64,000 nt of DNA from Escherichia coli O157:H7 (GTDB lineage Bacteria; Pseudomonadota; Gammaproteobacteria; Enterobacterales; Enterobacteriaceae): the NCBI RefSeq assembly GCF_013167455.1, contig NZ_CP038328.1; one strand, written 5' to 3'. Below are positions 20,276-27,635 of this stretch, one piece after another (within the stretch, counting starts at the first letter, position 1; every line of letters starts with the position of its first letter). Below the pieces are notes generated by a model, which saw only the letters and a program-made list of their open reading frames with translations, was not told the DNA's origin and did no database searches. The translations under genes and the position numbers were made by a program.

Positions 20276-20292
20276 TTTGGTCGGCACGAGAG
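20276..20292. repeat. attL core (direct repeat of the tRNA-Pro 3' end)
   Basis: TTTGGTCGGCACGAGAG is identical to 29850-29866. Confidence 0.9.
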
Positions 20293-20353
20293 TAGTTTAA
20301 TTGAGTATGTAACTACATGATTTTAAATAATATGCTTGATTCAACTTTTAAAC

Positions 20354-20377
20354 CGTATAACTAAACGTATAACTAAA
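20354..20377 (+). promoter_or_regulatory. two tandem 12-bp arm-type repeats CGTATAACTAAA
   Basis: The same 12-mer occurs four more times at 29665-29720 next to the integrase gene. Typical arrangement for integrase arm-binding sites. Confidence 0.65.
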
Positions 20378-20559
20378 ATCATTTGCTGAAAAAGTGTACA
20401 ATTTAAATGCGAGTTTTCCTGTGGTAAAAGCTCCAACCGTAACGATGTTCGTTATGGTTGCCTTGATGGTCTGCGTGGTCATTATGACCATTCAGGATTT
20501 GAAGGGTGACGCTTCCGACTTCCTCAAATTGAGGTTTCCGAAAATATCAGCGGGTTAGG

Positions 20560-20633
20560 CCAGAGTGCAAATTTGCACTCTGGAACAATTCCAACCAGTA
20601 ATCAGCGCAATTTTGCGCTTTGCTTTAAGTTCA
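20560..20633. repeat. noncoding module A: 24-bp perfect palindrome plus conserved 28-mer
   Basis: CCAGAGTGCAAATTTGCACTCTGG at 20560-20583, then CGCAATTTTGCGCTTTGCTTTAAGTTCA at 20606-20633. The 28-mer is identical to 20825-20852. Confidence 0.8.
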
Positions 20634-20791
20634 GCGAGTAACCGAAGGCGGAATTACGCCCTCGGTACTCACATATGAGAAACGATATTTCTTCCACCGA
20701 TACCCTTTATTTGGGTATCGCGAGTAAGCCCCAAAATCTGGGTGTTACTCTTACTACCCAAACTACGGGTATTTTCCGTAATTTCATGGTC

Positions 20792-20852
20792 GAGTTGCAG
20801 ATCTGCAACTCACCCACCAGCCAACGCAATTTTGCGCTTTGCTTTAAGTTCA
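20792..20852. repeat. noncoding module B: 20-bp perfect palindrome plus conserved 28-mer
   Basis: GAGTTGCAGATCTGCAACTC at 20792-20811, then the 28-mer at 20825-20852. Same order as module A, 219 bp away. Confidence 0.8.
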
Positions 20853-20857
20853 ACCAG

Positions 20858-21139
20858 TTACCGCCGTAACCGCTCCGGCTTCTTCCAGTGGTACGTAATT
20901 TTTGCTTTTTCCCTGTACGTCTGCACGCGGCGACGGTAGGCCAGCATTTCAAGAACGCGGATCCGTATGTTGCGCATATCAACGCCATTAAGTTCTATAC
21001 CATCACGGCGCATCACCTCAGCAACCACACGCGCGTAATTTTCGGCGGTCACGCTGTACGGCTGCGCGGTTTTTTCGTCAGCCTGCTGGCTGATTCCGGC
21101 GACGCGGCGGATTAATCCCAGTATTTCGGCTTCTGTCAT
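20858..21139 (-). CDS. hypothetical protein (93 aa), last gene of the satellite late operon
   Basis: ATG preceded by GGTGGAG. Follows the capsid-like gene. I recognise no motif. Confidence 0.6.
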   Translation of the reverse strand: MTEAEILGLIRRVAGISQQADEKTAQPYSVTAENYARVVAEVMRRDGIELNGVDMRNIRIRVLEMLAYRRRVQTYREKAKITYHWKKPERLRR

Positions 21140-21180
21140 TTCTCCACCTGGTCAGCTATTAAACTGCGAAAATTTCGTAA

Positions 21181-22158
21181 TTATCCCGATACGGGGATCA
21201 CCATATCGGGATTGATGCCGGAAAAATCAGCTTTCGCCAGAACGGTGACGGCCTTATCGAGTTTTTGCCATCCGCAATAGGTGATTGCCCTGAACGCTGT
21301 AGCGTCATTCTGGAAAAGGCTAACCGCCCCTGATTCGGTTTTTATTACCGCCTCATCAGTTGGGGTTATAACCGTGGCTTCAACGTTAATAATCAGCTTT
21401 TGAGCGTCTATCAGCATCATGCGATCCGCCTGTTCGCTCACAATTACCGGTATTCTCAAAAGCTCTATCTGCCAGAACTCAGCATCAGTAAGCTGTAATG
21501 CGTTTTCTACGGGCAAGATTAGCGACGACGTGGAAAGCGTGTTACCGTTCGCTATGTGCTTTTTGAAAAGCTCTATGAAGTTTTCGGCCTCATCAGCACC
21601 ATTAAGCACGCCCTCAGGGGATACGCCAGCCACCTCCTGATCACTGGAAAGAAATTTTTTATCTATTTCTTTCACCGATTCCGATGTGATCAAGTCTCTG
21701 ATCGCTGAATTGGTGCCAGGGGTGCTAAATTTGATTAGCTCGTTATTCAGCATCACAATAGCGCCAAGTTTGCACAGTTTTAGCGCGCTTTCGTTTACTT
21801 CTCCCTCTTTGACAGGGATTTCTTCTGCTTCTTTAAGCCATTTACTACCCTTGCCTGATATTGACTGCAATTTTGCGCCAAACGGAAGATTAAGCGCGCT
21901 GCTGATTAGCTTGCCTGGTACAGACTGCGAAAAAATATATTCTCCAAGCTCTCTTACTATCGGCTCTGCCACCAGCGACGGCATATTATCCGTAGTCATT
22001 CCGGCAATAATGGATTTTTCAAGAAATTTCGATACTGCCGGATCATTTCTTTTCGTCATCTCTATAGCGTCTGCATGGCTGAATTTACACGATGTAAGCA
22101 CGCTGGCGGCGCGAACTGCCGAAACGCCTTTCATGTTTTTAGAAATCATCTTCTTCAT
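21181..22158 (-). CDS. HK97-fold major capsid protein homolog (Phage_capsid-like), lone copy
   Basis: 325 aa. The pattern ...W..E.EEIPV....ES.L...KLGAIV.L.NEL......IRDLI......D..FL......P.G.LNG ... IPVIVSE......LID..... ...LFQNDATAFRA... matches my recollection of the PF05065/HK97 gp5 family layout. Confidence 0.7.
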   Translation of the reverse strand: MKKMISKNMKGVSAVRAASVLTSCKFSHADAIEMTKRNDPAVSKFLEKSIIAGMTTDNMPSLVAEPIVRELGEYIFSQSVPGKLISSALNLPFGAKLQSISGKGSKWLKEAEEIPVKEGEVNESALKLCKLGAIVMLNNELIKFSTPGTNSAIRDLITSESVKEIDKKFLSSDQEVAGVSPEGVLNGADEAENFIELFKKHIANGNTLSTSSLILPVENALQLTDAEFWQIELLRIPVIVSEQADRMMLIDAQKLIINVEATVITPTDEAVIKTESGAVSLFQNDATAFRAITYCGWQKLDKAVTVLAKADFSGINPDMVIPVSG

Positions 22159-22300
22159 CCTCCTGGAAGCACGGGTTTAGTGTTTCGTGAAAATATGGCA
22201 TCAGAACAGCGGCGGCCTGTAACCGTATTTCGGTCGGCTGCTGCTTGTCGTTCATGATTTCCGTGAGTACATCAATAGGGTCTGTGATGTATTCGCTCAT
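22139..22300 (-). CDS. small protein (53 aa) with TerS C-terminal-like helix
   Basis: Not in the track (under 60 aa). ATG at 22300 with GAGG 9 nt upstream. Overlaps the capsid-like start. The motif IRLQAAAVLMPYFH resembles, from memory, a conserved C-terminal segment of small terminase proteins. Confidence 0.5.
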   Translation of the reverse strand: MSEYITDPIDVLTEIMNDKQQPTEIRLQAAAVLMPYFHETLNPCFQEDEEDDF

Positions 22301-22311
22301 AGTTCGCTACC

Positions 22312-22800
22312 TCAGTGTTTTAAGTCTGTTGGTGGCTTAGGGATGGGGAACCGATTTGAGTAGACACTAGCGGCATTGAGTTTTTTAACCTCTTTTTTCC
22401 CAATGCTGCCGATCTTGCGGTGGGTGAACTGGGCCAGCTTAAACGCGGCATCTAAAGCCAGTTTTGGATCTGTGTCCATGTTGTCAATCAGTATCCTGCC
22501 CATTGCTTTGATGGGGTCGGGTAGGCCGTTATCCATCATCTCAATGGTGTTAATTGATGCCCGTTCCGGTGTAACTTTTTCGGTAACTTTCTTTGTAACT
22601 TTTTTCGGTTTTGTAACCTGAAAAGTTACATCAGAAGTTACAGCCTTAAGATACTTTTTCACCTCAGGATCGTTGGATAGCTGCCAGCCTTTAACCCTTG
22701 CGGTCTTTTCGCTGTATCCAGCATGTATAGCGGCTTCCGTGGGATTTGCGCCCCTTGATAACGCATCAGCAAACCGCTTTTTTTTGGTCGTTAATGCCAT
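22312..22800 (-). CDS. terminase small subunit-like protein (Terminase_2-type N-terminal HTH)
   Basis: I chose the internal start MALTTKKKRFADALSRGANPTEAAIHAGYSEKTARVKGWQL (162 aa) with GAGG upstream. The N-terminus fits the TerS HTH pattern L..K...F......N...AA..AGYS..TA. Contains a KKVT repeat tract. Confidence 0.75.
   Translation of the reverse strand: MALTTKKKRFADALSRGANPTEAAIHAGYSEKTARVKGWQLSNDPEVKKYLKAVTSDVTFQVTKPKKVTKKVTEKVTPERASINTIEMMDNGLPDPIKAMGRILIDNMDTDPKLALDAAFKLAQFTHRKIGSIGKKEVKKLNAASVYSNRFPIPKPPTDLKH
22571..22641. repeat. array of GTAACTTT motifs (four direct, two inverted) inside the TerS-like gene
   Basis: GTAAC at 22571, 22583, 22595 (12-bp phasing) and 22613. Inverted GTTAC at 22625 and 22637. 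Confidence 0.8.
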
Positions 22801-22824
22801 GCAAAAACCTCGTTTTGAGGGGGT

Positions 22825-22845
22825 GTAACTTTTCGTGTAACTTTT
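22825..22845. repeat. two more GTAACTTTT motifs, 12 bp apart, in the 5' UTR of the TerS-like gene
   Basis: GTGTAACTTTT at 22823 and 22835. Noncoding, 25-45 bp upstream of the ATG at 22800. Confidence 0.8.
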
Positions 22846-22927
22846 TTGAAAAGCAAAATTTTCTACGAATGAGACGGGGGGCGGTGTCCAGGGCGATCGA
22901 CTTTCCGGCCGGAACACTCCCCCCCTG

Positions 22928-23089
22928 TCATTGCTCACCGAGTAACGAGATCAGGCCTTCAACTTCATCACTCAGCTTGTTTATTCGTGTCTCAAGCTCT
23001 GCGATCTTTTCCATCAATGGCGCTATGGTGTCTCTTGTTTCCTCGCCAATGGCTTTAATGATGCTTGCCTCGCGTTCTGTGATAGCCAT
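22928..23089 (-). CDS. small coiled-coil protein (53 aa), hypothetical
   Basis: Not in the track. ATG at 23089, sequence MAITEREASIIKAIGEETRDTIAPLMEKIAELETRINKLSDEVEGLISLLGEQ. Starts 4 bp after the stop of the preceding ORF. Confidence 0.45.
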   Translation of the reverse strand: MAITEREASIIKAIGEETRDTIAPLMEKIAELETRINKLSDEVEGLISLLGEQ

Positions 23090-23092
23090 TGT

Positions 23093-23287
23093 TTACGCCT
23101 CACTTGTTGCAATGCCCAGGCGTTCGCGTAACAGTACGCGCGCAAGATGCCCTATTGTTGGTGTTGCCGCCCTGCCGTAGATACCTGATTCATTCATCCG
23201 GCGCACAATATCGAACTGCAACTTTTTAAGCTCGTTAAGGATTTCATGATCAATCATCACGGTAGCGCTTTGCTTTATCTCTTCCAC
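23093..23287 (-). CDS. small ribbon-helix-helix-like protein (64 aa), first gene of the late operon
   Basis: GTG start with GGAG 8 nt upstream. Beta-strand TVMID followed by two helices (HEILNELKKLQFDIVRR; TIGHLARVLLRERL), suggesting an RHH fold. Confidence 0.5.
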   Translation of the reverse strand: MEEIKQSATVMIDHEILNELKKLQFDIVRRMNESGIYGRAATPTIGHLARVLLRERLGIATSEA

Positions 23288-23375
23288 TTTGTTTTCTCCA
23301 GATACTTATCATTGCATAACCAGTATTTTCGATAGATTATCATTAATTAACCATCTTTGAAGATATATGAGATCG

Positions 23376-23399
23376 AAAAAAAGCCGGATTGCTCCGGCT
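23376..23399 (-). terminator. rho-independent terminator ending the replication operon
   Basis: On the minus strand, AGCCGGA-GCAA-TCCGGCT followed by TTTTTTT. Confidence 0.8.
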
Positions 23400-23417
23400 A
23401 TGTGCTCACTTCTTCGG

Positions 23418-23657
23418 TTATTCTCCAGCGCTTTTAACGTTGATGGTTGTTACCTGTTCCGCTTCGGCAATCTCCCGTTCTGTCAGCGTGGCAAAGTTTG
23501 CCGCCGCTGTGGTCATGAATGCGCTTATCAGTTCGGGATGTGCTTTCGCATATCCTTCCCCGGCGTTGCGGTCGATGATTTTTATCGACACCCTTAACCA
23601 GTGTTCCGTCAAATCAAGGGCGTGCGATTGTGATTTTTTTGTGTGCTTCGCTGTCAT
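23418..23657 (-). CDS. hypothetical protein (79 aa)
   Basis: ORF between the origin and the terminator. No motif recognised. Confidence 0.5.
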   Translation of the reverse strand: MTAKHTKKSQSHALDLTEHWLRVSIKIIDRNAGEGYAKAHPELISAFMTTAAANFATLTEREIAEAEQVTTINVKSAGE

Positions 23658-23702
23658 AGGCTTTATCTCACAGCAGTAAATTAAAATTTTTGCGTTTTAA
23701 CC

Positions 23703-23931
23703 CTTCACCTGTTCACCTTTTGATATTTTATCTTTTAATTCATAATGTTAAGGGGTGAACAGTTTCACAAAAACTATTCACCAACTATTCACCACTGTTC
23801 ACCCTTGAAGCTCAATAAACAATCAAAAAGGTGAACAGTGAATAGTTTGGTGAACAGTTCATAAATAACTGTTCACCCTATAATATACTGATATAAAAGA
23901 TATTTATGACAGGGTGAACAGTGGTGAACAG
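23703..23931. promoter_or_regulatory. replication origin: about 11 iterons CTGTTCACC/GGTGAACAG flanking an AT-rich core
   Basis: Iterons at 23709, 23754, 23774, 23785, 23795, 23830, 23849, 23869, 23913 and 23923, plus degenerate copies. AT-rich stretch at 23880-23910. Immediately downstream of the primase-helicase gene. Confidence 0.8.
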
Positions 23932-23944
23932 TTATTCCATAAGT

Positions 23945-25762
23945 TTAATTTTTGCTATCGTCATTAGTGACCGATACACATGACGGCATCCAGTCTTCTG
24001 ATTCCTCCGTCAGTGTCACGTTTGAACGCAAACCGTGCTTCGTTTTCCGTTTCATATACTCCCTGCCATATTCCGCCATTGCCCCCGGCATATCTTTACC
24101 GAAGCGCGTCAGTGTTACAGGTTTACCGAATCCGTGTGCCCTCATATATGCCAGATAGGCGTGATAAAGATACCTGCGCGGACTGAACGGAATAATTTCG
24201 GCATTACCCACTAACAGACCATCACACATTACCGACGACATGAGATAGCCGCAGAAGTCCACCAGCGAATCGCCCTCGCGTTTTATCACCAGAGCTTCTT
24301 CTGATTTCTGCTGCTCATACAGCAGGCGTTTAGCTTCGTCCTGGTCAGAAAAACGAGTAAGCAGGTGGCGAATCACAACCGCCAGCTCTCCTTCTATTTT
24401 TTCTGCCAGCATGGGGTCGCGTTCGTTTTCCGGTACAACCTCCGAAAAATTGAATATCACCCGACGACGTGAAATCCCCCCGCTGCGGTCACTGAATGAC
24501 ATGGCGTTATTGTTCACCGCCAACACTACCGCCTGAATGCGTGTTGAGTAGGGGGCTTTATGCTTCGGGTCGATTGCCACCTTGTCACCGCCTGTAATGG
24601 CCTTAATTCCTGCGCCATCACCAGCGTAACGGGTCATATCCGGCATGATAATCAGCGAAAAGCCAACCACTAACGCGCGTTCCCTGGCATCTTCCAGCGC
24701 CTTCATGCTTGCCGATACCGTGTTGGCCTTACCCGCCAGCATGGTGCAAATCTCCGCCATCACGCTTTTACCACTTCCCCCTGGACCTGTTACCTCAATG
24801 AATAACTGCCAGTCGTACCGGTTCGCCAGCACCATGAATAATGCAGCCAGTACGCGATCCGCCTTGCGGTCATTCTCAGCCACCGAACGGCGTAACCACT
24901 TCCAGAAATTCGGCGCATGTGTTGCCAGCGTTTCCCCCTCTGCTGGTGGGCTGAAAGGTAATTCACTGGCAATTAACAACCAGTCGTTTTTGTTATGCTC
25001 CCGAAAATCGCCTGTCCGGGTATCAAAAACACCGTTACTGAATCCAATCAGGTTACGGGCTGTATTCCCCATTACAGGCAAACTTAACTTCATGGTATCG
25101 ACCGCCGATTTAATGGCGTTCTGCGAATAGCTGATCTCCGCATCAATGAAAATCTGTGCCATAGCTCGCTGTAATTCTTTATCCTGTACTGGCTCCCATA
25201 CAACGCCGTTGTAATAGTGAACAGTGTCAGAGTCAGCATGAATCGCCAGTTCACCGCCATAATGTGCCAGGAGAACTTCGCCGCGTTGACTTGCTCCCAT
25301 CTGGTTAAGCGCCAGTGATGAAGCGTTATCGTCTTTTACCCGCTCTTTTTTCTTTACAGGCAGTTCAACTACCTTTTTCTTTTCCGCCTGCTCTGCCCGT
25401 TCACGTTCCAGATATTCGCGCCAGTTCTCCCGTTTCTGGCTGTGCATTCCTTCAGGGTAATAATCAGCATCCCTGACACCTGCCGCTGCCAGTTTCTGCC
25501 CGATGGTATTAACAAGCCCCGAACGCAATAACCCCGCCTGATAGAGACGCACGCGATAGCGTCCGTCCGGTACGATTTGCAGGTTGTCCAGTTCGGCAAG
25601 TTGTTGCTCTCCAAGCCAGACAGGTGGCACGTTATCGCCAGCCAGTCGCCCGTCCTGTTCCTGCCACTGCTTCGCATGTGCCCACGCATCACTACCCGCA
25701 AAAATGATGACTTCCGTCATTTTGTCACGTGGCTGGTGTTTTAAATTTGGCGCTTTTTTCAT
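23945..25762 (-). CDS. P4 alpha-like / D5-type SF3 primase-helicase (pri-rep)
   Basis: 605 aa from the ATG at 25762 (GGAGAG upstream; ATGA overlap with the upstream ORF stop). Walker A GPGGSGKS, D5_N-like region and P4-family primase C-terminal pattern. Confidence 0.8.
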   Translation of the reverse strand: MKKAPNLKHQPRDKMTEVIIFAGSDAWAHAKQWQEQDGRLAGDNVPPVWLGEQQLAELDNLQIVPDGRYRVRLYQAGLLRSGLVNTIGQKLAAAGVRDADYYPEGMHSQKRENWREYLERERAEQAEKKKVVELPVKKKERVKDDNASSLALNQMGASQRGEVLLAHYGGELAIHADSDTVHYYNGVVWEPVQDKELQRAMAQIFIDAEISYSQNAIKSAVDTMKLSLPVMGNTARNLIGFSNGVFDTRTGDFREHNKNDWLLIASELPFSPPAEGETLATHAPNFWKWLRRSVAENDRKADRVLAALFMVLANRYDWQLFIEVTGPGGSGKSVMAEICTMLAGKANTVSASMKALEDARERALVVGFSLIIMPDMTRYAGDGAGIKAITGGDKVAIDPKHKAPYSTRIQAVVLAVNNNAMSFSDRSGGISRRRVIFNFSEVVPENERDPMLAEKIEGELAVVIRHLLTRFSDQDEAKRLLYEQQKSEEALVIKREGDSLVDFCGYLMSSVMCDGLLVGNAEIIPFSPRRYLYHAYLAYMRAHGFGKPVTLTRFGKDMPGAMAEYGREYMKRKTKHGLRSNVTLTEESEDWMPSCVSVTNDDSKN

Positions 25763-26058
25763 TTCTGCTCTCTCCACGCGGCAATCATGTTTTTCAGTTC
25801 CTGTAGTTTTTTATCAACATCCATACATGGCACATGGTTATTTCTGGAAGGCGGGATTTCCCGCCTGAATCTGCTAATAAAGATCTCCACGTTCAGCGAA
25901 CTATGAAATGAATAGCCATCACGAATAAAATACACACGGTCAAACATCAGTTCTTTTACCGTTACTCTGTTACCGTTCTTATCCAGATAAATAGCGCCGG
26001 GGATAATTTTTGGGTGTGCATAACCGCTGGCAGTCAAGCCAGATAAATATGTTCTCAT
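25759..26058 (-). CDS. hypothetical protein (99 aa), DUF4222-like pattern
   Basis: AIYLDKNGNRVTVKELMFDRVYFIRDGY fits, from memory, the Y.D..G..V.V....V.F.R.GY pattern of small enterobacterial prophage proteins. Translationally coupled to pri-rep. Confidence 0.55.
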   Translation of the reverse strand: MRTYLSGLTASGYAHPKIIPGAIYLDKNGNRVTVKELMFDRVYFIRDGYSFHSSLNVEIFISRFRREIPPSRNNHVPCMDVDKKLQELKNMIAAWREQK

Positions 26059-26064
26059 GATTAT

Positions 26065-26385
26065 TTATCCCCGATTTGAATCAGTATTCGCTTTCTTTAT
26101 GGCATTTAATGCATCTGTGGCATTTTCAATGGTGCACCGTAACGAAATATTAAACTGTCCAAGCATTGCCAGTAACAAACCGATATTACCCATATCAATG
26201 CGCATGACCTTTTCGTCATAGTCCTCATTTTCTGACGCATGCCACATCAGGCTACCAATTGACGCAACAGCCATTGATATATTGTCAGTAGCCCCATCCG
26301 CAGCGGAATAAACCTTTTTAGCAATATCATGCTCACAGTTAAAATGCGGATTAATCAGGTACTGGTAATTTGACATATCAGGCAT
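26065..26385 (-). CDS. hypothetical protein (106 aa)
   Basis: I chose the internal start MPDMSNYQ. Its ATG overlaps the stop of the Icd-like ORF (ATGCCTGA). Occupies the position P4 gives to cnr, between the immunity region and alpha. This is positional only. Confidence 0.55.
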   Translation of the reverse strand: MPDMSNYQYLINPHFNCEHDIAKKVYSAADGATDNISMAVASIGSLMWHASENEDYDEKVMRIDMGNIGLLLAMLGQFNISLRCTIENATDALNAIKKANTDSNRG

Positions 26386-26566
26386 GGCACACCCCCTGAC
26401 GAATACGGGCGGCGAATACAGCAACACAACCGGACGGGCAACGGCTACGCGCTTCGCGTTCCGTCCAGGCGGTTACGTGGATGATTTGATGTTCTGACGC
26501 GCCAAAGATGATAAAGCGCCAGAGAAAGGCGGTTTGAGAATGTACAAGGGTAGGGATAGTAGCCAT
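26378..26566 (-). CDS. Icd-like (host cell division inhibitor family) small protein, 62 aa
   Basis: Start MATIPTLVHSQTAFLWRF...TEREARSR with a strong SD GAGGAGG. The sequence pattern is recalled from Icd-like proteins annotated in P4-like islands. Confidence 0.65.
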   Translation of the reverse strand: MATIPTLVHSQTAFLWRFIIFGASEHQIIHVTAWTEREARSRCPSGCVAVFAARIRQGVCHA

Positions 26567-26935
26567 GTTGGCAGCCTCCTCAGTGTGGTTAAGATAACCG
26601 CCACCGGAAACGCCAATTTCGCTGGTGGCGGACTGTACAGGGTTGGCGTAACCGGACACTGAAGAAACCGGCGCGGATTGCTCCGCCCCCGTACAGCCCA
26701 CCATTGATAAGGTGTGACTATGCGGCACAAAAAAACACGCGGGGCGCGTGTTATGCGCTTCAGTTTTGCCCAGGACGCCAATCCCGGCACCCGTTTTATG
26801 AGGTGCGCGGGAATCATAGCTATTTTCGACACTGGCGATCAACTGGTTTTTTTCTCCGATATTCAGGGCCAGAAAACGCCACACAAAGGCCGTTTGTGTG
26901 TGTACAAGGTGTGGTATATGATTTACGGCAACCAT
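26378..26935 (-). CDS. upstream Icd-like paralog ORF (start 26935) that stays in frame through the terminator, the RNA and the second Icd-like ORF
   Basis: AGGAG SD plus ATG at 26935. The N-terminus MVAVNHIPHLVHTQTAFVWRF parallels the 62-aa ORF. There is no stop until 26378. Whether the long product is made is doubtful. Confidence 0.3.
   Translation of the reverse strand: MVAVNHIPHLVHTQTAFVWRFLALNIGEKNQLIASVENSYDSRAPHKTGAGIGVLGKTEAHNTRPACFFVPHSHTLSMVGCTGAEQSAPVSSVSGYANPVQSATSEIGVSGGGYLNHTEEAANMATIPTLVHSQTAFLWRFIIFGASEHQIIHVTAWTEREARSRCPSGCVAVFAARIRQGVCHA
26623..26702 (-). ncRNA. candidate C4/CI-type antisense immunity RNA (tRNA-like, RNase P-substrate-like)
   Basis: On the minus strand, a 16-bp closing helix GGUGGGCUGUACGGGG/CCCUGUACAGUCCGCC has 3 G-U pairs that would be A-C mismatches on the other strand. 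It is followed by 3' ACCA. Inside are a GCAA-tetraloop hairpin and a 5-bp hairpin whose 12-nt loop UUUCUUCAGUGU is complementary to the downstream SD region. Confidence 0.55.
26729..26751 (-). terminator. rho-independent terminator upstream of the candidate RNA
   Basis: On the minus strand, ACACGCG-CCC-CGCGUGU followed by UUUUUUU. Confidence 0.75.
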
Positions 26936-27008
26936 AACGGCTCCTAGTTTACGTTGTTGGTTAGAAGCCCTGCGAGTGGTAACGACACTTGCGGGGCTTT
27001 GTCTTTTC
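26929..27008 (+). ncRNA. candidate cis-antisense sRNA covering the SD/start of the upstream Icd-like ORF
   Basis: Promoter-like TTGTGT-17-TATGAT at 26894-26922. A strand-specific 14-bp hairpin at 26965-26999 has 2 G-U pairs on the plus strand only and is followed by UGUCUUUUC. Confidence 0.3.
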
Positions 27009-27026
27009 ATCGATTACCTTGATAAA

Positions 27027-27108
27027 GGTGTCAGCCACTATATTAGTAACAGGTGTCAGCCACGTCAATAGTGTTTTTCCGTTTTCTTGTGTGTATACTG
27101 TCAGCCAC
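27027..27108. promoter_or_regulatory. three direct operator repeats (G)GTGTCAGCCAC
   Basis: Copies at 27027-27038, 27052-27063 and 27099-27108. Two overlap the minus-strand early promoter and one overlaps the -10/TSS of the RHH gene promoter. Confidence 0.7.
27040..27068 (-). promoter_or_regulatory. sigma70-type early promoter of the satellite (TTGACG-17-TAATAT)
   Basis: On the minus strand, -35 TTGACG (27068-27063), a 17-bp spacer and -10 TAATAT (27045-27040). Directed toward the icd-like/pri-rep operon. Confidence 0.65.
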
Positions 27109-27129
27109 CTAATAACGAGGAAATCAGAT

Positions 27130-27309
27130 ATGGCAACAAAAGCAGTTAATGCAAAATCCAAAAAGCTTGAGGCTCGAGTACCACACGCAATAGCTGATGC
27201 TGTAGAAAATTTAAAGGAAGATGGCGAAAGTACAGGGCAATTTATCGTTTCGGCACTTGAAGGCGAGATCAAACGCCGCCAGCGCCGCAAGGCCAAAGAA
27301 TCAGAATAA
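27130..27309 (+). CDS. Arc/Mnt-like ribbon-helix-helix repressor (59 aa)
   Basis: Internal start with GAGGA SD. KKLEARVPHAIADAVENLKEDGESTGQFIVSALEGEI fits the Arc-type pattern (beta-strand ..L..R.P, helix, G.S...., helix). Divergent from the early operon. Confidence 0.65.
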   Translation: MATKAVNAKSKKLEARVPHAIADAVENLKEDGESTGQFIVSALEGEIKRRQRRKAKESE

Positions 27310-27366
27310 TCACTATCAGCGCCGTGGTGTGAGGTATTACGGCGCATTGCTATGCAGGACAACACA

Positions 27367-27540
27367 ATGACCGATAAAGAATTGACCAAAACATTATCAC
27401 CGGCACGGAAAAGACGGCGCAGAAAGATAGAGCATGAATCAGAAAGATTCGCACCATGTGCTTTTGCCCTTGAGCAATTCCTTAAAGAGTACAGGGAAAA
27501 GCGCTCATTGCAGGTATGGCAACGAACTGAACCAGACTGA
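27367..27540 (+). CDS. small arginine-rich protein (57 aa), hypothetical
   Basis: I prefer the second ATG because AGGA lies 7 nt upstream. Contains SPARKRRRRKIEHESER. Co-oriented with the RHH gene and followed by a terminator. Confidence 0.45.
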   Translation: MTDKELTKTLSPARKRRRRKIEHESERFAPCAFALEQFLKEYREKRSLQVWQRTEPD

Positions 27541-27635
27541 TTGCATTGCCCACCAGCCTGATAGCGGCTATCATCCCCGTGCTTATGTTTGGGATCACAT
27601 ACACATAAGGCGCAGCGGGTTAATTGTTCAGAAAG

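Follow-up and report, generated by a model that had tools for sequence, protein, structure and literature searches.

What do short, regularly spaced DNA repeats do when they lie both in front of and inside the gene for a phage small terminase subunit (TerS)? The question is raised by a satellite island in a 64,000-nucleotide stretch of Escherichia coli O157:H7 DNA, the whole of which we call the window. The island carries its own terS on the minus strand, and copies of a motif that reads (A)AAAGTTACA on that strand cluster upstream of the gene and among its codons. The AAAGTTACA cluster is real and is conserved at the DNA level. Judging from sequence comparisons, we consider it quite likely that the copies are binding sites of the island's own TerS, forming a cosB-like recognition array of a cos-packaged satellite.

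The window holds seven exact copies of the 8-mer GTAACTTT, counted on both strands, and six of them fall within 280 bp (22571-22844). On the plus strand, three copies start at 22571, 22583 and 22595 with a 12-bp period, and a pair lies 12 bp apart at 22825 and 22837. The sixth copy is on the minus strand at 22622-22629, and the seventh is found at 36989. Shuffled sequences contain 1.76 copies on average and six at most, and 0 of 100 shuffles reach seven. The 7-mer AGTTACA also occurs seven times in 64 kb, close to the 7.3 that base composition predicts; six of the seven are in the 280-bp cluster, and the remaining ~63.7 kb of the window contain a single one. Tandem Repeats Finder recovers the 12-bp period in arrays spanning 22571-22609 and 22823-22845. 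Together with a weaker copy, GTAACC at 22613, and two inverted copies, AAAAGTTAC at 22621 and AGAAGTTAC at 22633, the five plus-strand copies make an array of eight motif copies, two of them proximal and non-coding and six in terS codons 53-77. A preliminary description of this DNA had listed these copies and their 12-bp phasing, and all of them are present.

The two proximal copies, P1 and P2, lie in non-coding DNA 22-46 bp 5' of the ATG, upstream of the gene as that description had placed them. P1 (AAAAAGTTACA, 22836..22846, minus strand) is 36-46 bp upstream of the ATG, and P2 (GAAAAGTTACA, 22824..22834, minus strand) is 24-34 bp upstream. In the distal cluster, two inverted copies (D1 and D2) are followed by four direct ones, of which D3 is weak and D4-D6 keep a 12-bp pitch. 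D1 (22633..22643) and D2 (22621..22631) lie on the plus strand, inverted with respect to the gene. In plus-strand reading they are AGAAGTTACAG and AAAAGTTACAT, and they code for A-V-T-S and D-V-T-F, respectively. The direct copies are on the minus strand: D3 (CAGGTTACA, 22612..22619) codes for Q-V-T, while D4 (AAAAGTTACA, 22594..22603), D5 (GAAAGTTACC, 22582..22591) and D6 (AAAAGTTACA, 22570..22579) each code for K-V-T. All six internal copies are in frame 0 and read Val-Thr, and together they encode AVTSDVTFQVTKPKKVTKKVTEKVTP.

The terS gene (22312..22800, minus strand; ATG at 22800, stop at 22312) encodes 162 amino acids and was characterised with Pfam, PHROG, AlphaFold2 and Foldseek. Pfam Terminase_2 (PF03592) matches residues 3-57 at 42.4 bits against a cut-off of 26.1, and PHROG 641 matches the full length (1.5e-43). 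In the AlphaFold2 model, an N-terminal four-helix domain with a predicted local distance difference test score (pLDDT) of 80-89 is followed by a linker whose pLDDT stays under 50 (residues 57-84) and then by a helical core. Foldseek superposes the N-terminal domain on its DNA-binding counterpart in the SF6 small terminase (4zc3), with a TM-score of 0.87 and a root-mean-square deviation of 1.5 Å. Residues 1-56 thus form an SF6/SPP1-type helix-turn-helix (HTH) DNA-binding domain, residues 57-84 a linker predicted to be disordered, and residues 96-126 a helical core. By these matches, the protein belongs to the Terminase_2, or SF6-SPP1 G1P, type, in which an N-terminal HTH domain precedes a predicted oligomerisation core. 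Because of the low pLDDT at residues 57-84, we place the internal motif copies within DNA that encodes a probably disordered linker.

We compared eight non-redundant loci with the same type of TerS, referred to as clade B (E. coli, Hafnia, Salmonella and unassigned contigs; TerS 56-65% identical to that of the window). Among them are a complete Hafnia alvei prophage and E. coli satellite-like loci that have an HNH gene of their own. Each of the eight contains 4-11 motif copies, and in every one a AAAGTTACAC copy precedes the start codon by 29-36 bp; the position of P2 is kept in all clade-B loci examined. Inside the gene, the Val-Thr pairs of the linker are coded GTT/GTA-AC without exception (32/32 in the eight loci). 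Among the inverted copies, 12 of 14 are GTA-ACT preceded by a codon that ends in T, whether it codes for S, R, A, D, G or L, which produces AGTTACA on the other strand. Invariant residues and four-fold-degenerate sites elsewhere in the gene use 2-5 codons. The upstream copy, the uniform Val-Thr coding and the freedom of synonymous sites elsewhere support the earlier proposal that the motif is selected at the DNA level and not only as protein. A check set in advance concerned homologs that keep the peptide and lose the motif together with its upstream copies; none occurs among the eight loci, and the proposal survived.

The array adjoins a cos region (22858..22925, minus strand) composed of a run of seven G, GATCG, CTGGACACCGCCCCCCGTCTCA and an A-tract. 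This region aligns with the intergenic region between the HNH endonuclease gene and terS in three TerS clades, and it is ~80-83% identical to the matching prophage region in E. coli genomes. Its core box, GGACACCGCCCCCCGTCTCA (22870..22889, minus strand), is a 20-mer identical to that of the Shiga toxin (Stx) phage 2851, with a predicted 10-nt 3' cohesive end, CGCCCCCCGT, at 22874-22883. The closest phage TerS proteins, at 44-47% identity, are those of the 2851-type (Pankowvirus) Stx-converting phages. In these phages, a gap of 294 bp separates the HNH endonuclease gene from terS, and terL and a protease/capsid fusion come next. In phage 2851, the gap between HNH and terS contains GGGGGGG...GATCGCTCCGGACACCGCCCCCCGTCTCACGCAGAGAAAAAATT, and the island matches it closely at 22858-22925.

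The database record of a related phage locates the cut. Lys8385Vzw (MT225100.1) ends with ...GGACACCGCCCCCCCT and starts with CTCACGCAG, that is, the record is linearised inside the box; it starts right after the box, and terS is reached 185 bp later. PhageTerm analysis described Lys8385Vzw as a cos phage with 3' cohesive ends of the sequence CGCCCCCCCT (PMC7946995). Since the record ends in the box and a cohesive end was mapped, we take the box to be the nick site of the 2851-type phage group. In the island, the proximal copies begin 28 bp after the predicted cut at 22874, on the terS side, which would be packaged first. Two other interpretations of this region were rejected. The dyad of G-run and C-run is not an intrinsic terminator, as it has no T-run and its single-strand fold is not better than that of shuffles (z = -0.8), and the box is not a sequence homolog of the HK97 cos, to which it shows no similarity.

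To place the array among related phages, viral contigs were scanned with a degenerate box, and the matches were dereplicated together with the other loci of the study, giving 130 distinct box-plus-terS segments in three TerS clades. Clade A, the 2851 type (81 segments), has five GTTAAC upstream of terS in 80 segments and four in one, with 0 GTTAC/GTAAC; inside terS, neither motif occurs. Clade B, the type of the window (12 segments), has 1-6 GTTAC/GTAAC upstream, with one stray GTTAAC in one segment, and 3-6 inside terS, with one GTTAAC in two segments. Clade C (36 segments) carries GTTAAC over the start codon (ATG/GTG TTA ACA = M-L-T), and its linker often contains GTTAAC again (PVVN). In L105, L108, L112, L128 and other clade-C loci, the element recurs in the linker as Val-Val-Asn (GTT GTT AAC) and in some cases also in the C-terminal LVVNN. 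The start-codon and linker copies of clade C indicate that embedding of sites in terS codons is not peculiar to the clade of the window.

An alignment of 12 cos regions puts the first motif copy at the same column in all three TerS clades, where the sequence is AAAAGTTACAC in clade B, CAGTTAACATGTTAACTG in clade A and GTGTTAACRTGTTAACAG in clade C. The segment counts and the shared column together reveal that the type of motif follows the TerS clade and that the nick box is common. The element therefore covaries with TerS beside a shared nick site, with essentially no overlap between clades A and B, over a small number of independent lineages.

These results bear on the two sides of the preliminary description, which had offered a pac- or cosB-type site. 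The cosB side is supported: the array lies directly downstream of a conserved cos box and covaries with the TerS clade. The pac side does not, since relatives have an HNH gene beside terS and a cohesive end detected by PhageTerm (PMC7946995). A headful pac site, as in phages P22, SPP1 and P1, was accordingly rejected in view of the conserved nick box, the 10-nt 3' cohesive ends of the relative and the HNH gene.

Clade B is found in E. coli, Hafnia and Salmonella, in phages as well as satellites, and 12 of 12 distinct loci carry AAAGTTACA upstream and in the linker. The viral-contig scan gave mainly near-identical E. coli islands and clade-A phages. Further clade-B loci came from exact-protein look-ups, and a protein-pattern scan of genome contigs with the TerS alignment returned no confirmed relative. 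A complete Hafnia alvei prophage with a clade-B TerS has HNH, terS, terL, a protease/capsid fusion and a portal gene, and its array lies between HNH and terS. The pair of TerS and motif is thus not specific to the island, contrary to the island-specific TerS of the preliminary description. Within E. coli, the only clade-B TerS genes seen were those of satellite-like loci, and the phage records of the collection contain none. The large terminases of a clade-A phage and of the clade-B Hafnia phage are 64% identical.

We also notice two further kinds of clade-B locus. L007 (6616-6858) and L008 represent a second satellite-like kind in E. coli, in which an HNH gene of its own (162 aa), the cos box and a spacer are followed by clade-B terS and a 281-aa capsid homolog; the L007-type locus adjoins a type III secretion locus. 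In Salmonella, L009 and L010 are two contigs with an identical clade-B TerS (P0012) and an identical upstream region. One of them continues with a 51-aa and then a 309-aa open reading frame (ORF) and is satellite-like. The other has a protease/capsid fusion and a portal gene a few kb downstream, and is possibly a satellite that adjoins a prophage or lies within one.

At ~10 TerS positions, clade B shares no residue with clade A or C. Residue 39 (codon 22684-22686), which follows the invariant Lys-Gly of the HTH, is Trp, Cys or Tyr in all of clade B and Ser in clades A and C. As one of these ~10 positions, residue 39 is a candidate specificity determinant.

The array adjoins the cos box and occupies the alignment position of GTTAAC in the other clades, and for these reasons we regard it as a probable terminase recognition site. 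We propose that, after replication, the HTH domains of a TerS oligomer would recognise two sets of sites: the proximal pair, 28-50 bp past the predicted cos nick on its downstream side, and the distal cluster, ~230-305 bp past it, inside terS. Bound TerS would place a large terminase and an HNH endonuclease from a helper on the adjacent cos box, and packaging would then run from cos into terS. With the distal sites in DNA for a disordered linker, the Val-Thr repeats of the protein would be largely a by-product of the DNA motif. The 2851-type phages have GTTAAC and another TerS clade, so the TerS/site pair of the island would confer a packaging specificity of its own on a shared cut site.

Because the nick box is that of the E. 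coli clade-A phages, we suggest that the island uses their large terminase and HNH endonuclease, and redirection of a helper's large terminase by the island is plausible. A wider and more tentative idea is that satellites common in Shiga-toxin-producing strains possibly keep the nick box and cohesive end of Stx phages but swap the recognition half for an orthogonal TerS/AAAGTTACA pair, which differs from GTTAAC by one bp in the core. With the array mostly in linker codons, such satellites might take over the large terminase and HNH endonuclease of the Stx phage.

Several observations weigh against a terminase recognition site read by the island TerS. Clade A is essentially one closely related lineage, and the covariation rests on few independent events. 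The C-terminal tails of TerS differ, ...KH in clade B versus ...LVVNN... in clade A, which makes compatibility with the clade-A large terminase uncertain. The same short-motif arrays occur beside integrase genes in other phyla, so that the sequence of the motif by itself is not diagnostic of a terminase site. Moreover, RNA of the inverted copies is able to fold into a stable hairpin (z = -3.8), and the conserved copy near the start codon also fits an autoregulatory operator.

Among the alternatives, such an operator fares best, although we regard it as unlikely. TerS or another protein would control the transcription or translation of terS and of the downstream capsid gene, which would agree with the copy kept 29-36 bp upstream of the start codon at all eight clade-B loci and with the equivalent motif of clade C overlapping the start codon. 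However, a promoter scan found no sigma-70-like promoter in 22500-23400, and in complete phages terS sits within the late operon, between HNH and terL. In clade A, even the copy nearest to the start codon is ~98 bp away from it, and yet the first copy holds its place with respect to the cos box. Nor would an operator account for the 4-6 additional copies that lie 160-230 bp within the gene.

The inner copies might instead be a (KKVT)n peptide made by slippage in a tolerant linker, with the two upstream copies there by coincidence, which we find very improbable. The copy number of the 12-bp KKVT unit does vary among E. coli islands whose identity otherwise exceeds 90% (P0003 lacks 8 amino acids and P0004 lacks 4), and on this ground some internal copies are recent duplications and the number of distal sites changes by slippage. 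But the motif is also kept in non-coding DNA at every clade-B locus, and L007 has six non-coding AAAGTTACA copies in a 240-bp spacer, an inverted pair included. The inverted copies preserve their flanking bases by synonymous choices in unrelated codons, whereas synonymous sites elsewhere vary, and none of the eight loci has the Val-Thr peptide in other valine codons and no upstream copies. Furthermore, AGTTACA is found only once outside the cluster, though ~7 are predicted for the whole window.

A function of the motif as RNA, either as a hairpin in the terS mRNA or by pairing with the leader copies, could in principle control translation or stability, and we give it little credence. The internal array does fold at -26.3 kcal/mol (z = -3.78 against shuffles), but a fold of this kind follows from any inverted DNA repeat. 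What is conserved is the sequence itself and not pairing alone, with no compensatory change to count, and single and directly repeated copies are conserved too. The 311-nt fold of leader plus gene is unremarkable (z = -1.7), and a search of Rfam gave no family match, only sub-threshold microRNA noise.

Least credible of all are integrase or excisionase arm-type sites or iterons of an island replication origin: the island has a P4-type integrase, and in several metagenome-assembled genomes of proteobacteria the arrangement GTAACT-N(9-24)-AAAGTTAC-N4-AAAGTTAC directly precedes a P4-type integrase gene at its 5' side, but the repeats near the attachment (att) sites of the island are another motif, CGTATAACTAAA, at both ends, the array stands ~2.3 kb away from one end of the island and ~7 kb away from the other, the array of the Hafnia prophage is far from any integrase gene, and the origins of phage-inducible chromosomal islands (PICIs) adjoin the primase gene (PMC6092414), whereas here three small ORFs separate that gene from the array. 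Meanwhile, this exact architecture has 27 matches in 596 Gb of genome contigs (L216-L242), against ~0.5 expected by chance, and none of the 27 is in Enterobacterales. Three proteobacterial loci were examined with their flanking ORFs (L223 3627-3665, L228 1315-1354 and L233 5280-5319), and in each the array is directly 5' of a P4-type integrase gene. The architecture is present in loci of Akkermansia, Bacteroidaceae and Clostridia as well. The L216-L242 arrays look like a separate, unexplained family.

The island itself (20276..29866, minus strand) is ~9.6 kb long and is inserted at tRNA-Pro(GGG), as defined by a 17-bp direct repeat, the tRNA gene and Pfam matches. The repeat, TTTGGTCGGCACGAGAG, is found at 20276-20292 and 29850-29866 and overlaps the 3' end of the tRNA-Pro gene (29852-29928). 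The genes are arranged in the order integrase, Ash-family protein, DUF4222 protein, D5-type primase, small ORFs, cos, terS, a 53-aa ORF, a capsid homolog and a 93-aa ORF. The integrase is a P4-type tyrosine integrase. By ORFs and Pfam, the island has no large terminase, portal, tail or lysis genes, and terS and the capsid homolog are its sole morphogenesis genes. A length of ~10 kb, an integrase at the end, a primase/replication module and an att site of its own give it the make-up of a Gram-negative PICI-type satellite (PMC6092414).

At both island ends we observe the CGTATAACTAAA repeats, two at ~20355-20385 and four at ~29660-29720, some of these inverted. These repeats, which differ from the terS motif, probably serve as arm-type sites for the integrase.

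Of 5,426 complete E. coli genomes, 219 contain the packaging segment (window 21100-23700) at a coverage of 80% or more, and those listed include O157:H7, O111 and O145 strains. In O157:H7 PV15-279, the island occupies another chromosomal site. Further matching places occur in 8 of the 11 island-bearing genomes listed, the sole pointer to co-resident clade-A prophages.

Two products encoded downstream of terS resemble a phage small terminase and a phage capsid protein. The 53-aa ORF directly after terS (22139..22300, minus strand) matches positions 89-125 of PHROG 641 (1.1e-06) and resembles the TerS core minus the DNA-binding domain. Counterparts of 49-51 aa follow clade-B terS in L207, which is phage-like and has the ORF before terL, and in the satellite-like L208, L210 and L010. 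The product could join or cap the TerS oligomer. The 325-aa capsid-family protein (21181..22158, minus strand; Pfam Phage_capsid, 1.3e-06) is a distant homolog of the helper-type major-capsid domain, with 23-25% identity to the protease/capsid fusions of a 2851-type phage and the Hafnia prophage, the two candidate helper types. Its position and divergence recall Ccm, the size-redirecting capsid homolog of SaPIbov5.

If the array serves the island TerS as we propose, it would clearly exemplify dual coding, with a DNA motif that shapes the sequence of the very protein bound to it. The difference between AAAGTTACA and GTTAAC, together with the candidate TerS residues, would provide a simple and testable specificity code for the widespread HNH-type cos phages, including Stx1a- and Stx2c-converting ones. 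The proposed system bears on the mobilisation of islands in Shiga-toxin-producing E. coli and on the design of orthogonal cos/TerS pairs for transducing particles.

In the literature that we searched, there is no description of the motif, of a 2851-type cosB, or of cos satellites equipped with both a full-length TerS of their own and a cognate array. Among the closest known systems is phage lambda, whose cosB elements R3, R2 and R1 are bound by gpNu1; lambda and phage 21 share a nick site and have TerS-specific elements. As in that pair, a set of short repeats occupies the interval from cosN to the beginning of terS, on the end packaged first, and their sequence covaries with the type of TerS while cosN is shared between phages. 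On the other hand, the island TerS has an HTH of the Terminase_2/SF6 type and does not belong to the gpNu1 family, the motif differs, and most copies are inside terS. The island cos is also of the HNH-associated kind with a 10-nt 3' overhang, and no IHF site was identified.

In SPP1, the pacR boxes, one set of binding sites for G1P, are inside the terS gene. In the SPP1/SF6 pac region, pacL and pacR are bound by the small terminase G1P, and the island TerS has the same DNA-binding fold, as matched to 4zc3. However, SPP1 packages by headful after one imprecise cut at pac, whereas the island has a conserved cos box, and the cohesive end has been mapped in a relative.

HK97 resembles the island in the order of HNH, cos and terS, in 10-nt 3' overhangs, and in a TerS site that starts some tens of bp past the cut, shortly before terS and beside an A-tract (PMC11331095). 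Its TerS binds a single 15-bp site located 15-29 bp from the cut (PMC11331095), in contrast to the repeated motif of the island, and neither its TerS nor its cos is related in sequence to those of the island.

Among satellites, EcCICFT073 also resides in E. coli and has a helper-like cosN and cosQ with its own cosB, which is read by a satellite DNA-binding protein, Rpp (PMC6739421). Rpp is not a terminase subunit and acts in a heterocomplex with a lambda-type TerS (PMC6739421), whereas the island protein is a full-length TerS of another family. An identity of the island protein with Rpp was rejected, since a phmmer search against all PDB sequences gave only weak matches to TerS DNA-binding domains and none to RppA or RppC.

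SaPI1 and SaPIbov1 likewise encode a TerS homolog on the satellite, and the SaPI TerS directs the large terminase of the helper to satellite DNA. They use headful packaging from pac in Gram-positive hosts, while the island combines a nick box identical to that of candidate helpers with an orthogonal cosB-like array. SaPIbov5 is, like the island, a cos satellite of HNH-bearing phages with a diverged capsid homolog (Ccm), but its cos is that of the helper and it lacks terS, whereas both a terS and a site array of its own are present in the island.

The known strategies of satellites are thus a TerS with pac in the SaPIs, a copied helper cos in SaPIbov5 and presumably in E. coli 11capE, and Rpp with a divergent cosB in EcCICFT073. 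Beside the two known in E. coli, the copied helper cos and Rpp, the island would represent a third, in which a full TerS and its own cosB stand next to a cosN identical to that of the helper.

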